From: Candidatus Parvarchaeota archaeon
GTDB taxonomy: Archaea > Nanobdellota > Nanobdellia > WJKC01
Assembly: GCA_030615175.1 (NCBI GenBank)
Contig: JAUWZX010000001.1
Location: 408,029-460,043, forward strand
Length of the DNA stretch: 52,015 nucleotides
Reading direction: 5' to 3'
Shown here: positions 6,752 through 50,236 of the stretch, one piece after another
How the letters are laid out: the number at the start of each line of letters is the position of its first letter
How positions within the stretch are numbered: position 1 is the stretch's first letter
Notes under the pieces: generated by a model
Told to the model about the DNA's origin: nothing
What the model saw: only the letters and a program-made list of their open reading frames with translations
Database searches by the model: none
Position numbers and translations under genes: made by a program

Positions 6752-6832
6752 CTGACAACCGTTGCATTAAACCCAATAAATAATTAATTCCATTGTCACA
6801 GGCGACTTAACTAAGTGACCCTTGTCTTAGTT

Positions 6833-9806
<2,974 letters not shown>

Positions 9807-10061
9807 CACAAACTAAGAAAGGGTATATTTTAGTAGTCCCCTGTGAACTACTGGAAATTACTTTACGTCTATTATTTATTGGGCCTATGCAACGGCGTCA
9901 TGAACATGAATGTTTCAGCCAGTCACTCCCTTAAGTCTTTACTCAGGAAGCTCATGTTTCGTGTTAAGCAGCGGTCTACAACTCAGAGGTTGTAAGAAGT
10001 TTTAATGCTTAATTTATTCACTTATCATTTCGACCACTAAATATTAAAAAAAACAAAGAGG

Positions 10062-13395: not shown

Positions 13396-14924
<1,529 letters not shown>

Positions 14925-43658: not shown

Positions 43659-43715
43659 AAAAAAAGAAGAACAAGAACGCGATTTATAAATATTATCATT
43701 TAAAAAAATTAATTT

Positions 43716-44012
43716 TTAGTTCCTTGCTTTAACGCATCTCCAGTTATGACAGTCAAGCTTGAACGAGCAGTCAACATTAGTTATGCATTCAACGCTGCAT
43801 TCGCCTTTGACTTCGCCCACATCCCTAAACTCTAAGTCCCCGTCAGAGTCCCAGTCCCTGCATTCAAGTAGTGCGTAGCCATTGCAATGCTGTTCCCCGT
43901 CTTCGCAGGCATCGCTAGTAATTATTCTGCCAGTAATGTTGCCAGTGATGTTTGCGTAGCCAAGCAGTAATAACAGTCCGAACAGAGCTAAAATAACGTA
44001 TTTAGTTTCCAT
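43716..44012 (-). CDS. Small secreted Cys-rich protein
   Basis: Signal/TM segment, ITGNITGRII, then 8 Cys. Confidence 0.7.
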   Translation of the reverse strand: METKYVILALFGLLLLLGYANITGNITGRIITSDACEDGEQHCNGYALLECRDWDSDGDLEFRDVGEVKGECSVECITNVDCSFKLDCHNWRCVKARN

Positions 44013-44190
44013 AATGATTTATTTAGTAATACTATTTTATTAAATTTTTGGTTAGTTAAAAACTTTTTAATTAAATACATCTGGAAGGCTTAATTAATAA
44101 ATAAATGGATATCATATATAAAATTTATGGGATTTTCCTATGAAATTCTTTAGTTTTTAGGCTTTTTCTTCTTGTCTTTCTTCTCTTTTA

Positions 44191-44427
44191 TTACCAACAT
44201 CCTGTCTTTTTCTTATTCTTTTTATGAATTTTAGTATGTGTTTTCCGGTCTTTGAAAACATATAAGTTTGAAGGGCTATTATCTTTTTTATCTCTATTTT
44301 TGTGGTGTACTACTTGTTTTTTGCTTAATTTGTGTCCAAATTGTTTTTCTTTAACCCACCTGCTTACAAGTTTTCCAGAATCCTTAAAACGTCTATACCC
44401 TTTTTTATCAATATAAGTTTCTGCCAT
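44191..44427 (-). CDS. Minimal HNH endonuclease-fold protein
   Basis: VVHHKNRDKKDNSPSNL...H motif in 78 aa; very basic. Confidence 0.85.
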   Translation of the reverse strand: MAETYIDKKGYRRFKDSGKLVSRWVKEKQFGHKLSKKQVVHHKNRDKKDNSPSNLYVFKDRKTHTKIHKKNKKKTGCW

Positions 44428-44483
44428 AATTAATCATTATGTATAAGTATTATTTATTTCTTCCTTTTTTAATCCTGCTTTTT

Positions 44484-44636
44484 TTAATATCTCCTTTTCT
44501 TCTTTTTAACTCGTTTTTCAATTTTGCCTGTTAAAGGATTTCTTATTCCTATTGTTTTTGTGTTTGTGTAATGGTCCACTTTTCCTGTAACTGGATTCCT
44601 TACAGCTTTTCTTTTTGTTTTCTTCTTTTTTACCAT
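44484..44636 (-). CDS. Unannotated 50-aa basic protein with two RNPxTGK repeats
   Basis: MVKKKKTKRKAVRNPVTGKVDHYTNTKTIGIRNPLTGKIEKRVKKKKRRY; SD GGAGGTGAT complementary to this genome's 16S 3' end. Confidence 0.8.
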   Translation of the reverse strand: MVKKKKTKRKAVRNPVTGKVDHYTNTKTIGIRNPLTGKIEKRVKKKKRRY

Positions 44637-44669
44637 TTTATCACCTCCTGATTTTTTATTATTTTTTTA

Positions 44670-45131
44670 TTATAAACCACCAAAATCAAATCTTCCAAGC
44701 CCGAATGGGTCTTGCTTTTTTTTCTTTTTCTTCTTAGTTATTTTTTTCTTAGTGCCAGTTGTACTCTTTTTTAATTTTCTTGACACTTTCTTCATTGCTT
44801 TAGTCCTTACTTTTCTTTTAACTACTTTTGTTTTTGAGTATCCTAACATATCTCTTGTTTTTACTCTCTTTACCTGCTTCTTTGTTATTTCACCATGGCA
44901 ATTCTTACAAATTAACCAGCAATTCTTCTGATTAATATCTGCTTCATTACCATTTTTATGATGGAATTCATATCTTCCACTTCCCCACTTTAAGGCCATT
45001 CTACACTCCCTACACTTACTTCCTGCTCTCTCCCATTCAATTTTCTTCGTAGAAATTTTGAATGCTTTACGCTTCTTAATCTTCTTACCAGTAATAAAGT
45101 CATAATTGGAAGAACCCCAACTCCTTGGCAT
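44670..45131 (-). CDS. Zn-binding HNH-fold protein with a Lys-rich tail
   Basis: CREC...EFHHKNG...NCWLICKNCH, followed by a long Lys-rich C-terminal region. Confidence 0.82.
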   Translation of the reverse strand: MPRSWGSSNYDFITGKKIKKRKAFKISTKKIEWERAGSKCRECRMALKWGSGRYEFHHKNGNEADINQKNCWLICKNCHGEITKKQVKRVKTRDMLGYSKTKVVKRKVRTKAMKKVSRKLKKSTTGTKKKITKKKKKKKQDPFGLGRFDFGGL

Positions 45132-45170
45132 GTTAAATAATAATAATTAAAAGAATTTAAGAATTGCTAT

Positions 45171-45302
45171 TTAAAACTTAACTCTTACTCTTCTCTTAGG
45201 TTTCCTTCTGGCTTTAAACTCAACTGTCTTTCCTTTCTTTGTTTTAAATTTCACTGGACGTTTAGTTTTAGTTTTTTTCCTCTTCGCTAAAAACTCAGGC
45301 AT
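45171..45302 (-). CDS. Unannotated 43-aa highly basic protein
   Basis: MPEFLAKRKKTKTKRPVKFKTKKGKTVEFKARRKPKRRVRVKF; fills the gap and is co-oriented with the HNH genes. Confidence 0.7.
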   Translation of the reverse strand: MPEFLAKRKKTKTKRPVKFKTKKGKTVEFKARRKPKRRVRVKF

Positions 45303-45493
45303 GTTATTTTAGAATCAGAACTTGGCTAAAAAACTTAGCTATATTTACTCTATGAAAAAAATTTCAAAGTCGTAAACGCAACCCCACCCTCGCTTACTCA
45401 TTTATCTTTAAGGCTACTTATTTTGATGTCTTTAATTGGTTTCTTGTTTAATGAGAACTCTTTTTAATGAATAAACCTTAGAATAATTTATTT

Positions 45494-46090
45494 ATGTCAG
45501 ATGTGCCCATATTAGCATGTAATTGCGGTAGTGGATTGACTGATTTTGGATTAACTCTGTTGGGAGGTGGTTTAGCGTTTATGGGCGGAATTAGTATTTT
45601 TCTTATAAAAAAATGGACGGATTCTATAATAGAGGAATATAACAACATAATTAAATTGTCCTCTAAATCAAAAGAATTTTTGAGAGATTATATTAATAAA
45701 TGGGAGGATATCTACGAAACAGGCAAGCCGTTATATAGTGTTTACATTAGAACCTTTGTAGAAGGAGAGATACAACTTGTTGATGAAATAATTAAAATTT
45801 TTGAATGGAACAATGAATATTATGGGATTATAAAAAGATTAAGAGAGATAAGAACCATGTTATATGCCTTTCTAACTAATACTCCTATTTATTTTATTGA
45901 AAGTAAAAGCACAAGAGTTGAAAAAAGTGAAATTAAAATTGGAGATGACATTAAAAGCGAGTGTCCCAAGGTTATAGAAGAAATAAATGGTGAGAAACTG
46001 AGATTGTTAAAGAAAAAATTAAGTAAAGAAACTAGGTTTAAAAGACAGTTTCTGAAATTACTAGTTAATGATTTAAAAAGGATTAAATAA
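45494..46090 (+). CDS. Hypothetical protein with N-terminal membrane anchor
   Basis: 198 aa, one TM segment then a helical soluble domain. Confidence 0.6.
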   Translation: MSDVPILACNCGSGLTDFGLTLLGGGLAFMGGISIFLIKKWTDSIIEEYNNIIKLSSKSKEFLRDYINKWEDIYETGKPLYSVYIRTFVEGEIQLVDEIIKIFEWNNEYYGIIKRLREIRTMLYAFLTNTPIYFIESKSTRVEKSEIKIGDDIKSECPKVIEEINGEKLRLLKKKLSKETRFKRQFLKLLVNDLKRIK

Positions 46091-46127
46091 ACCTTATTAT
46101 GGTTCATATATCACGGACTTCGACTGC

Positions 46128-46655
46128 TTAATTTTCGAGTTTATATTTATTTTGTAGAAATTTTACATAAGGATTTAAACACGTTCTTACAAATTTTCTT
46201 ATTCTTGGTTTGTCTGCAATAAAATCAGCAATCGATGGACTTACAAAATAATAGAAACTTACAAAATTTCTTCCAAAAACATTATTGGAAAGAGTTTTAT
46301 CTCTCCAAAATCTTAAAGTATCAATTTCTTTTGCAAAAGGCGTGCCATAAGCAGCAGTTGCTATAAAGCATCCTCCCTTCTTTTTAGGCACGCAAATATG
46401 ACATGCTGTTTTACCTACTTTATCATCTCTCCCCTTTCTTAATTCCCGTTCAGATAATTTTCTTGCATGAGTTGGACAATATATTTTATTACATTCTTCG
46501 CATTTTAAGACACAGTCATCACAAACCCAATCACCACACCCGGTGGATGTACACTTTCCAGCTATTTCTTTTATAGGACGATTTCTTCCACAAACATCAC
46601 ATAAACGATAATCATCAGACTTTCCAACTACATTGTCATCTTTTTGTGTAACCAT
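46128..46655 (-). CDS. Zn-finger protein with a C-terminal CFI-box domain
   Basis: Multiple CxxC/CxxH pairs, then GGCFIATAAYG...LRFWRD...GRNFVSFYYFVSPSIADFI. Confidence 0.8.
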   Translation of the reverse strand: MVTQKDDNVVGKSDDYRLCDVCGRNRPIKEIAGKCTSTGCGDWVCDDCVLKCEECNKIYCPTHARKLSERELRKGRDDKVGKTACHICVPKKKGGCFIATAAYGTPFAKEIDTLRFWRDKTLSNNVFGRNFVSFYYFVSPSIADFIADKPRIRKFVRTCLNPYVKFLQNKYKLEN

Positions 46656-46806
46656 GCAATTTCGTATTAAAAAAGACTTTATAAGTTTAACTATCTATTA
46701 AGTCTTCAACCATGATTCTATAGATTACTTTTTATGGTAAGAAATGTACCAAATAAAATTTTAAACCAAAAATTTAATAAATGTAAATACTTCAAAATTA
46801 AGAATA

Positions 46807-47673
46807 ATGAATGCAAAATTTATCCTTCCAACATGTTTATTTGGTTTGTTGTTAATTGTTGGATGTACAGGCTTAACAGGCGGGGCGGTTACTGGTAAAA
46901 CGATTACTTGCAACAGCCCTTACATACTTGTTGGTGATGCTTGCTGTTTAGATGAGAATCATAATAGTGTCTGTGATAAAGATGAATCAATAACTGAGTG
47001 TATTAATAATGATGGTACTTGTCCAAGCAGTTGTTATGCAACTAATGATAATGATTGTACTAATTGCCCAACTAATCAAGTTTATAGTCAGGGAACTTGT
47101 GTTACTCCAGATTGTTCAAGAAATTCGGATTGTTATGATGGAAATTCTTGCACAAAAGATATTTGCAAAAATATGGAGCAATCTAACGCATACTGTTCAA
47201 ATATAGCAATAATTCCTTGCTGTGGTAATACGATATGTGAAGAAGTAGAAGCATACTCAAATTGTCCAAATGACTGCGAAAAACCAATGCCGATTTTAAA
47301 TATTATGTTTGAAAACTGTGATACTGGTTTTGACCTCTTTAATTTAATGGGAGAAGTAACAAATGTTTATATTAAATTAAAAAATATTGGAAATGCAAAA
47401 GCAACTAATGTTGTTTTAACCGCTTACGCTAATGATGAAGATAACGTTCATCCTGATAAAACAAAAACTGTAGGAATTGTTATGCCAGGAGACGTTATAG
47501 AAGGGATAAAACTTACAGTAGATACATTGTCTAATACTAAAACGACTGTAAGAGTTAGAGTTACAACGAATGAAGGCGTGGGGGGAGAAATAGAAGATAG
47601 TGGTTGTGTAATTGATAAAGACCAAATAACTTTAATTGGAGAACAAATTTGGAAATTGATACCTTTTATTTAA
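46807..47673 (+). CDS. Cys-rich surface lipoprotein with a C-terminal Ig/CARDB-like domain
   Basis: Lipobox IVGC, CNSPYILVGDACCLDENHNSVCD, CGNTICE...CPNDC and LKNIGNAKATNV. Confidence 0.75.
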   Translation: MNAKFILPTCLFGLLLIVGCTGLTGGAVTGKTITCNSPYILVGDACCLDENHNSVCDKDESITECINNDGTCPSSCYATNDNDCTNCPTNQVYSQGTCVTPDCSRNSDCYDGNSCTKDICKNMEQSNAYCSNIAIIPCCGNTICEEVEAYSNCPNDCEKPMPILNIMFENCDTGFDLFNLMGEVTNVYIKLKNIGNAKATNVVLTAYANDEDNVHPDKTKTVGIVMPGDVIEGIKLTVDTLSNTKTTVRVRVTTNEGVGGEIEDSGCVIDKDQITLIGEQIWKLIPFI

Positions 47674-47753
47674 CAATCTAAATGATTTAAATGACAAAAA
47701 TAATGCCTAAAAGAATACCTTTGTCTAAAGTATTGAATTCTTTTAGTTAAGAC

Positions 47754-48185
47754 TTAAATAAATTCGCACTTGTCAAGATTAAGCCCCATTAATGAACTCT
47801 TTATTCTACACGTAAATGAAATTTGGTCATGTTCAGAAAGTGAAAGTAACTGTTCTGAATAATCATCATCGAAATACAATGTTACAAACATAAAAGCATA
47901 TTCATTGGTTGGGTCTCTTAAGGTTACATAATAAGTGTCCCATATTGATTTATCAACTCCTTTTATGATACCAGTCCCGTTTATCCACTTTCCTTTATTA
48001 TTATCAACAATATTTTCTTTTTGTAAGTCAGTATATGTTGATTCCAACCAAAAATATCTTTCAAGAGTGTTCCAAGATATAGATGTATAAGTTTTTTTGC
48101 TTCCTTGTGAAGAATAAGCAGACCTGCCTGTTGTGCAACCAGCTAATAATACTATTCCTAAAATCATTAGGTAAACTTTTTTCAT
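47754..48185 (-). CDS. Lipoprotein with probable OB fold
   Basis: Lipobox LAGC; KGKWINGTGIIKGV...DQISFTCRI pattern. Confidence 0.7.
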   Translation of the reverse strand: MKKVYLMILGIVLLAGCTTGRSAYSSQGSKKTYTSISWNTLERYFWLESTYTDLQKENIVDNNKGKWINGTGIIKGVDKSIWDTYYVTLRDPTNEYAFMFVTLYFDDDYSEQLLSLSEHDQISFTCRIKSSLMGLNLDKCEFI

Positions 48186-48208
48186 AATATTCTCACGTCA
48201 CTTATTAT

Positions 48209-48415
48209 TTACTCATTTTTTGGTACTACAGCAATTACTATTAATCCTAAAAAACCTAATAACGTGCCTACGATAAACCATCCAAATTGACTTCTGTTTT
48301 TAGTTCCTGCTATATATGCGCAAATTATTCCAAATATGAACCACGCTATTACAACGTAAATAAAAATGGATGAAATAAATCCTACAGTTACCATACCAAT
48401 AATGTCTGTGGTCAC
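48209..48415 (-). CDS. Small membrane protein
   Basis: IAGTKNRSQFGWFIVGTLLGFLGLIVIAVVP; GTG start. Confidence 0.7.
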   Translation of the reverse strand: MTTDIIGMVTVGFISSIFIYVVIAWFIFGIICAYIAGTKNRSQFGWFIVGTLLGFLGLIVIAVVPKNE

Positions 48416-48744
48416 AATTTCTTTAAATAATTACTTGCATTTAAATATTTACCGGTCTTTTTAGATAGTGTCTTCAGAACTCCACAGACAAATGCTAAAG
48501 CAATTCGCGATTGCATATGGGATTCTGAAACGTCTAGCAAGGTCGCAATACTGAGAAAACGGGTTACTTTAATTAAATAAGTTAAGGTATCTATTTATGT
48601 TAAAACATTCTATTAGGATAGCGTTTTTTATGCTCTATTAGGAAACTTGATTTTTGCCAATAAAAGTGATGATTTTTATAAAATCCAGGAAAAATTTTAA
48701 TTAATCGCAAAGTATTTATAACAGAGTTTTTACTTTAAAGCAAT

Positions 48745-49338
48745 ATGAATAAGGCATATTTAGTGCTTTTAGGATTAGTAATTCTTGTAGGCTGTACTGG
48801 TATAACAGGTGAATCTATTAAAGAAGATTGTCCTGCTTGTGATAGTTGCTGTCCTCAAGACACCACGCCATACACTTCATGTGATAGTTGTTGTTCTGCT
48901 TGTGAGCCTGAAATCTTATATAAATATGTTTGTATAAATAGAAGTATAGTTTACAATGAATCGGATTGTTATTCAATTTTTAATCTTAATAGAGCAAAAA
49001 TAGACATTCCTTCATTATTAGTTGATGGATATTCTATTAAATCAGTAAATAAAATAATTTATAGTGATGGCTTATTTGAGATAGAAATTAGTTATGGTAA
49101 TTGGGTGATGAGAATTCTTAAGGAAGGTATGTTTACTACACTAAAAGAACTAACTAATTACTTAAATACAAAAGATATTGATGTTCAAAATATAAAAATC
49201 GTTTTCATTACTCCTATGGGTGGAGTATTAAGAGGCATAACCACTTGGAACACTGCCTTAGATATACTTGCATTAAATATAGGTTATGAAGATTGGACTG
49301 CCATTGCAATCTTTGAATCAAAGGATATTAGTGTGTAA
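48745..49338 (+). CDS. Lipoprotein with a duplicated CDSCC motif
   Basis: Lipobox LVGC, CPACDSCC...SCDSCCSAC. Confidence 0.7.
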   Translation: MNKAYLVLLGLVILVGCTGITGESIKEDCPACDSCCPQDTTPYTSCDSCCSACEPEILYKYVCINRSIVYNESDCYSIFNLNRAKIDIPSLLVDGYSIKSVNKIIYSDGLFEIEISYGNWVMRILKEGMFTTLKELTNYLNTKDIDVQNIKIVFITPMGGVLRGITTWNTALDILALNIGYEDWTAIAIFESKDISV

Positions 49339-49525
49339 ATGATAAAAAAAGGAATTTCTGCGTAAGATTTAGTAAATCATTCTTAAACTTGGTTATTTGA
49401 TTGTGGCTCTATAAAACTTAATTAGACGGCTCGGAATTAGGTTTTAACCCTCATTTTTTTGAGAAATCAATGAAACTGGTTGAAAAATAAAAGGTTTATA
49501 ATATGAAACAATCTTCATTTTTAAT

Positions 49526-49888
49526 ATGGATGACATAGTTTCCGCCGATAAGGAAATCATTGGTAATGGAGTTTTTATTACATTTAATGAAGAACCTTGC
49601 ACAATTATACTTGAAAAACATAAAAATGTAAAGATTGAAATCCATTTTGCAGAAGATGATTCTAAAGAACAAAAAGTTTCTTGGGGGGGTAAGAATAATA
49701 ATTCGGTGTTAAAGATTAAATTTTTAAATTTTAATAACGTTTTTGGAAATAGTTCAATTGAACATTTAAATTTGGGGGTTTTGAATAACAGAGCATTCTT
49801 TGGAAGGTTTATAGTTTCTAAGTTACCTAAGGGTTCCTTTTATGAAGTAATATACACATTCTATTTAGGTGATAACGTTGGTCATTAA
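49526..49888 (+). CDS. Hypothetical all-beta protein (resembles DUF6864, unverified)
   Basis: NFNNVFG...R...YTFYLG pattern recalled from that family. Confidence 0.55.
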   Translation: MDDIVSADKEIIGNGVFITFNEEPCTIILEKHKNVKIEIHFAEDDSKEQKVSWGGKNNNSVLKIKFLNFNNVFGNSSIEHLNLGVLNNRAFFGRFIVSKLPKGSFYEVIYTFYLGDNVGH

Positions 49889-50156
49889 GTTGTCTAAAGG
49901 TTCTGCTGTTAGTGCGAGTGATTTAAAAGACTTAAAGAAAATTGAAGCAGGGCAATTAGGAAAATTTTTTGGATGTGGTGTTGATTCTGTTAAGAATATA
50001 CTGGGTCTTGTATTAATTTCTTTTTCCGTTACAATTCTTATAATAATATTATTAGTAACAGAATTTAATGAGAAAATTGAATTAATAAAGACTTTAAGTC
50101 CTATAATTGCCCTTATTATTGGTTACTTGGCTGGGAAAAAAATGAGTGAAGTTTAA
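49878..50156 (+). CDS. Two-TM membrane protein coupled to the upstream gene
   Basis: SD AGGTGAT before TTG at 49878; GQLGKFFG, two TM helices, IGYLAG. Confidence 0.65.
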   Translation: MVIKLSKGSAVSASDLKDLKKIEAGQLGKFFGCGVDSVKNILGLVLISFSVTILIIILLVTEFNEKIELIKTLSPIIALIIGYLAGKKMSEV

Positions 50157-50236
50157 CAAACCAATATAAACAAGGGTTAATTTCTAATAAGCAAACCTTC
50201 GCGGTTTAATTAAAAAGTCTTTTTTATATTTTTGGT

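Follow-up and report, generated by a model that had tools for sequence, protein, structure and literature searches.

In all 13 other genomes in which we found the gene for a hyperbasic 43-aa peptide, here called A, a nuclease-type gene adjoins it or lies one gene away. The pair is likely an undescribed, recurring two-gene unit for binding and cutting DNA. In the Candidatus Parvarchaeota archaeon studied here (archaeal assembly size 1.0 Mb), A leads a row of four co-oriented minus-strand genes, A to D (Table 1), within the 52,015-nucleotide stretch of contig JAUWZX010000001.1 that we analysed (the window, whose coordinates are used unless stated otherwise). The four-gene cassette has been put together locally around the two-gene module, and in full it was seen only here.

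Table 1. The cassette genes and the insert that holds them
Feature	Position	Strand	Description	Basis
D	44191..44427	-	78-aa HNH_3 mini-nuclease without CxxC (H41, H42, N50, N54, H64, H68)	Pfam
C	44484..44636	-	basic 50-aa peptide carrying RNPxTGK twice	ribosome-binding site, motif
B	44670..45131	-	153-aa Zn-HNH; tail basic, ends rich in aromatic residues, Gly and Pro; variable pair member	motif, model
A	45171..45302	-	43 aa, hyperbasic; a long beta-hairpin is predicted; constant pair member	homologs, codon pattern, AF2
Insert	43660..50236	.	low-GC variable insert (~6.6 kb) holding the cassette	GC, gene order

An earlier note on this DNA, made from the letters alone, had described four co-oriented hyperbasic reading frames, and this description holds: lysine plus arginine make up 49% of A, 32% of B, 40% of C and 32% of D, and isoelectric points are 10.4-12.0. 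Of the genome's ATG-initiated ORFs of at least 35 aa, 37 of 3323 reach at least 30% K+R, and A-D are four of these; the remaining 33 include, judged by eye, many ribosomal proteins and shadow frames. The same note's remarks on signal peptides and on methylase and integrase genes agree with what we see: by eye, none of the four proteins shows a hydrophobic signal stretch, and a Pfam scan of 13 insert proteins found no methylase or integrase.

The insert has a GC content of 30.2%, versus 39.7% and 41.2% in its flanks, and is placed in a ribosomal protein operon, between uL30 (assigned by TIGR01309) and a gene that we take to be uL15 from gene order and its motif. The uL30-uL15 gap is a variable insertion site in the family. 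It holds ~14 genes in the window and one unrelated gene each in two other genomes (G002, G003), and in G001 two unrelated genes stand upstream of uL15, close to a contig start. Searches of these three genomes returned neither A nor B, and D was not found in G001. No meaningful repeats or terminators were found, and the insert gave no Rfam RNA. Also in the insert are a gene for a Cys-rich protein with a CFI-box-CTERM domain (46128-46655, minus strand; NF041770, E 2e-25) and, downstream of D and co-oriented with it, a 98-aa gene (43716-44012, minus strand) that combines an N-terminal hydrophobic stretch with an acidic Cys-rich domain and has no homologs in 176 tested loci. Elsewhere in the window, the 23S and 16S rRNA genes (6826-9816 and 13397-14924) are ~3.6 kb apart, with protein genes and a tRNA between them.

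Peptide A has no match in Pfam, PHROG, NCBIfam or PADLOC and no significant match in the PDB. Searches returned 26 further homologs, 67-90% identical to it, two of which come from records labelled Nitrosopumilaceae and Nitrosotalea. A set of 1.84 billion proteins gave 28 clusters at 50% identity. Across 2770 codon pairs from 12 genes, codon positions 1, 2 and 3 differ at 26, 27 and 56%. This concentration of differences at third positions indicates that selection acts on the A protein, and it marks A as a conserved coding family under purifying selection, so that the small frame taken for a gene in the earlier note is real. The AlphaFold (AF2) model (pLDDT 83, pTM 0.38) has four strands and a long beta-hairpin. 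Fold searches with it gave no match (best Z 2.3), a 43-aa hairpin being too small for a firm search, and eL39 matches look compositional. ESM Atlas matches for A and C all score ≤0.85 and are leads only. Neither A nor C has cysteines or other zinc ligands. Charge and the predicted hairpin suggest that A binds nucleic acid; histones are present in all five genomes tested, so A is not a histone substitute.

Genome searches recovered A in 6/401, 9/401, 11/351, 0/151 and 1/131 genomes, in samples that overlap; the first two counts include the archaeon's own genome, and the 0/151 comes from a Bathyarchaeota-centred phylum sample. A is patchy, occurring in 2-3% of the genomes searched, and its loci span at least 10 families and two phyla. 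The set of 13 other genomes was reached after removing two false matches, one that we take to be a ribosomal protein (L182) and one that is partial with two stops (L188), and after setting aside two divergent loci (L189, L203). In one genome of the set A is split across two contig ends (L204, L205). Two loci from genomes of the same genus, L180 and L181, have nearly identical HNH ends with A in opposite orientations beside them, and the L180 copy of A carries an internal TGA. The loci set aside (L189 1498-1626, L203 1492-1629) belong to a distant subfamily, A', of the RRVRKRVSF type, which also includes P0063, P0065, P0067 and P0069-P0071, with P0064 as its tandem-repeat form. In both loci (2/2), A' lies directly upstream of a gene that we presume to be PIN-like from its motif; Pfam PIN models gave no match for these genes.

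The nucleases beside A are of two kinds: tailed Zn-HNHs in 9/13 genomes and PD-(D/E)xK-like proteins, a weakly assigned class, in 4/13. One small membrane gene intervenes in L201. The HNH partners have the build of B, with basic tails and aromatic/Gly/Pro-rich ends, and are 131-149 aa long where complete (in L180 and L185 the contig ends inside the gene). Six of the nine exceed the Pfam HNH cut-off and all nine match a profile made from 18 HNH loci without A. With this profile from non-A loci, an HNH lies within 1 kb in 9/13 A loci versus 1/70 control D loci, each of the latter flanked by 1 kb or more on either side. L236 was scored as a miss from its ORF list, and the Fisher p of 2e-8 is overstated because kin are not independent. 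In five A genomes that were picked for having an HNH partner, PF01844 is rare, with only eight matches, five of them beside A, and the match beside A is the sole one in three genomes. Within the pair the peptide stays constant: identity among A homologs is 50-88%, and among partner HNH cores 12-35% outside one clade of three (67-86%). In two of the nine partner HNHs (L200, L201), Arg replaces the catalytic His in the alignment.

Dependence within the pair seems to run one way. None of the 13 genomes has A without a neighbouring nuclease. From a search that returned 30 HNH loci, seven were training loci, and none of the remaining 23 has A within ~1.5 kb; at least nine of these share the short tailed build. 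The tailed-HNH profile matched 81/351 genomes, mostly through generic HNHs, in a tally that alone includes the unpublished G667 and G694. As tailed HNHs often occur without A and A was always found beside a nuclease-type gene, A seems nuclease-dependent and the nuclease not A-dependent. In several loci, tailed nucleases adjoin genes for tiny membrane proteins of ~30-54 aa (L201 1641-1802, L219 1105-1260, L221 1352-1501, L236 ~585-671).

B, which starts 39 nt downstream of A, carries the motif CxxC..HH..N..CxxCH (C40, C43, H57, H58, N70, C75, C78, H79) in a core of about residues 22-87. It matches the PHROG HNH (E 4e-6) and PADLOC ZorE (E 1e-7) profiles weakly and no Pfam HNH model at E ≤ 1. 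Its predicted structure resembles the HNH domains of Cap5, McrA and IscB (Z 6.9-7.0 over residues ~13-87). The model thus places B in the HNH fold, with the His/Asn/His and [CxxC]2 signatures of the superfamily, in line with the zinc-HNH assignment made from the letters. Its catalytic set looks intact, and the nuclease is presumed active. B has one close homolog among 1108 candidates. Its core is 12-20% identical to those of other partners, and it matches the independent HNH profile at E 0.006, values that mark it as an HNH subtype distinct from the other A partners. A second, longer HNH-like frame occurs elsewhere in the genome (G000 C4:19162-20064, E 4e-4).

Three of the four PD-(D/E)xK-like partners form one basic family, A7 (41-53% identity to the first); the fourth, in L178, is acidic and unrelated to them. 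E40, D62 and E82-V-K84 are invariant in 3/3 aligned A7 proteins, and the assignment presumes the E..(P)D..(D/E)xK motif. Database matches of these partners are weak (VRR_NUC E 0.08, HSDR_N_2 E 0.06, PDB 2eo0 E 0.48). A7 was found in 0/121 genomes of one sample, which lacked a positive control. None of the four genomes with a PD-(D/E)xK-like partner has a tailed-HNH match, which fits partner replacement.

Peptide C is preceded by a GGAGGTGA ribosome-binding site, and the reading of C as an RNPxTGK-repeat peptide stands. A search covering its own genome, the D loci (tblastn), viral contigs and the ESM Atlas returned no full-length homolog. The NPxTG motif itself recurs, fused to the C-terminal end of the partner HNH in 4/9 cases (L180 and L181, of the same genus, L201 and L205), and this fusion ties C to B-type nucleases. 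It is also found at the C-terminal end of a solo HNH in L235, and an HPLTG occurs inside one PD-(D/E)xK-like partner (L236). C is likely a stand-alone or detached copy of a hairpin motif that elsewhere is fused to partner HNHs, and it may bind DNA. An identification of C as a 2-cysteine adaptor (PF08793) was rejected: residues 13-19 alone align, at E 0.07 and with no Cys.

The second nuclease of the cassette, D, passes the curated cut-off of Pfam HNH_3 (PF13392) with 33.1 versus 24.8 bits, in agreement with its earlier reading as an HNH, and is a member of these free-standing endonucleases. Its subfamily differs from other HNH_3 proteins in being a bare 70-100-aa domain, usually with a Trp end, found mainly in cellular genomes. 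Fifteen of 16 candidates are close homologs, and the closest named match (81%) is from Nanoarchaeia. A D profile gave 169 loci. Of these, 65 are from genomes and 24 are viral, the latter mostly longer generic HNHs; the other 80 are the best of 322 metagenome matches. The cellular matches are in DPANN, Asgard, Methanosarcinales, Dehalococcoidia, Treponema and Patescibacteria, and among 126 full-length loci no neighbour is conserved across lineages. By tblastn, A, B and C are beside D in 0/169 D loci, and A is also absent there by profile; D occurs in 0/13 other A genomes (completeness 83-100% where given), and A in 0/10 D genomes. On this distribution, D classes as an independent, widespread, free-standing mini-HNH that is unlinked to A elsewhere. 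In three loci (L012 3800-4000, L013 133-315, L078 305-469) a 54-66-aa gene that by eye looks ribbon-helix-helix-like stands directly before the D homolog, possibly as a toxin-antitoxin-like pair. In four others (L011, L018, L019, L051) large genes that by eye look restriction-modification-like abut D homologs downstream.

The earlier note had proposed an undescribed system in which mini DNA-binders alternate with HNH proteins, and among the things that would refute it, it had named the genes never being found together elsewhere. A and a nuclease-type neighbour do co-occur in 13/13 other A genomes, and C's motif is fused in four loci, which supports an undescribed module around A and a B-type nuclease. 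The alternating four-gene arrangement, by contrast, falls with the distribution of D (0/13 and 0/169).

We prefer the reading, with a probability of roughly 40%, that small nucleases which can be exchanged for one another act on foreign DNA and that A helps them, optionally, by binding DNA. A would be a separately encoded DNA-binding arm that a minimal nuclease receives in trans; the small, swappable partner would cut foreign DNA; and the two together would form a compact conflict module. The one-way dependence, the constant peptide with its variable partner, and the hairpin motifs that occur both fused and free fit this helper-arm model best. Adjacency suggests that A works with the nuclease, and the island setting and toxin-antitoxin context point to foreign DNA as the target. 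Against a specific helper interface, one peptide accompanies two unrelated nuclease folds. In a more ambitious version, which we consider doubtful, A is the constant piece of a plug-in DPANN nuclease system, gripping nucleic acid and recruiting the neighbouring small nuclease through shared aromatic/basic tails and NPxTG hairpins; the partners would then comprise at least four HNH subtypes plus a resolvase-like PD-(D/E)xK enzyme. Such a system, if true, would arm the smallest cells against foreign or host DNA with a weapon that can be swapped in.

The arrangement of the pairs bears on a different reading, addiction. Nine of the 13 pairs are convergent, two are A-first as in the window and two are nuclease-first, so most pairs are not one operon; six meet tail to tail, either separated by 0-1 nt or overlapping by 4 nt. 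Pair neighbours are housekeeping genes, or RelE/ParE, MazEF, PIN, AbiEii and integrase genes. Two small genes with a patchy spread (A in 11/351 genomes), toxin-antitoxin neighbours, frequent tail-to-tail placement and, by eye, a TATA-like box ahead of A in most loci are reminiscent of type II or type I toxin-antitoxin systems. A toxic nuclease might be checked by A, through coating of self DNA or antisense read-through from a convergent A, or A might itself be a toxic condenser of DNA or RNA. We regard this as unlikely, since tailed HNHs without A occur in many genomes, pair orientation varies, A matches no antitoxin family and is basic rather than hydrophobic, and the four co-oriented pairs (4/13) mean that antisense is not general. 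Immunity proteins of colicin-type HNHs are acidic, unlike A. A strict type II system, with the toxin always accompanied by its antitoxin in one operon, was rejected because 9/13 pairs are convergent and 0/23 other HNH loci carry A.

Variation in partner identity and orientation, together with the decay of some partners, would also be expected of selfish hitch-hiking, with A a minor nucleoid peptide and homing-type nucleases inserting beside or carrying it without shared biochemistry. Sul7d, Cren7 and MC1 are small, basic, beta-rich archaeal nucleoid proteins, and A is likewise small, basic and beta-rich. No sequence or fold match of A to them was seen, in searches for which a hairpin of this size is too small to be firm; A differs from them in occurring in only 2-3% of the genomes searched and in its tie to nuclease genes. 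Free-standing HNH nickases can mobilise their neighbours, as PMC3592412 describes for mobE. A peptide as rare as A is nevertheless a poor homing target, it was never found alone (0/13), 56% of third codon positions differ in its DNA so that no conserved DNA target is evident, and histones are present in 5/5 genomes tested; we find hitch-hiking improbable.

A host-directed or salvage function, in which cationic peptides and nucleases are exported or placed at the host contact and condense nucleic acid of the host or the environment and break it down as a source of nucleotides, would suit a DPANN-type archaeon with a genome of this small size, and small membrane genes do stand beside several loci. 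A C-terminal aromatic residue after a basic stretch is found in 20/26 A and 59/67 D proteins versus 9.5% of genome ORFs, and in many partners too, and is possibly an export or degradation signal; shared ends within a family reflect homology and are not independent evidence. With no signal peptide visible by eye, no secretion genes found beside A, and A also in records named for Nitrosopumilaceae and Nitrosotalea, which are free-living, we judge this function very unlikely. That small basic genes have gathered in variable islands by chance holds for D and suits the variable insert, but for the pair it is highly improbable given 13/13 adjacency versus 1/70 for the island-gene control, in a set spanning at least 10 families and two phyla. 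The viral core-protein remnant that the earlier note had offered as its alternative finds no backing: searches of viral contigs found no relatives of A, B or A7, searches of phages and plasmids found no A, and the single viral match of C is a fragment of an unrelated 306-aa protein.

Returning to the helper-arm reading, the nearest precedent, by analogy, would be the small zinc-ribbon genes beside phage HNH nickases, which Xu and Gupta (PMC3592412) propose, as speculation, to be mini-specificity subunits. There too, according to that paper, a minimal [CxxC]2 HNH has a small neighbour that is fused to it in some cases and is a proposed specificity subunit or regulator. The A pair differs in that A and C are without zinc ligands, no terminase or portal genes are nearby, the pair is cellular, and the partner can be PD-(D/E)xK-like. 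B shares its predicted HNH fold with the defence effectors Zorya ZorE, CBASS Cap5, Septu PtuB and McrA at the domain level only; it has 153 aa, scores 24 versus the 600-bit ZorE cut-off, and has no sensor domain. The PADLOC check proposed earlier yielded an HNH-domain match but no known defence system, and partner genes of Zorya II, CBASS, Septu or restriction-modification were not among the insert proteins scanned. Literature listings and the openings of abstracts showed no description of the A-nuclease pair, and the two-gene module is apparently undescribed. 'HNH' is absent from the main texts of PMC12988326 and PMC6393860, whose supplementary family lists may hold A as an unnamed cluster.

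According to PMC12988326, DPANN archaea have little restriction-modification and CRISPR-Cas, while compact candidate systems are enriched in them. Here, a 43-aa gene below the usual annotation limits marks small nucleases of two folds, a concrete and cheap-to-test candidate and a handle for finding further compact nucleases. If A is a common helper of unrelated nucleases, it would represent a new way of building a modular nuclease.
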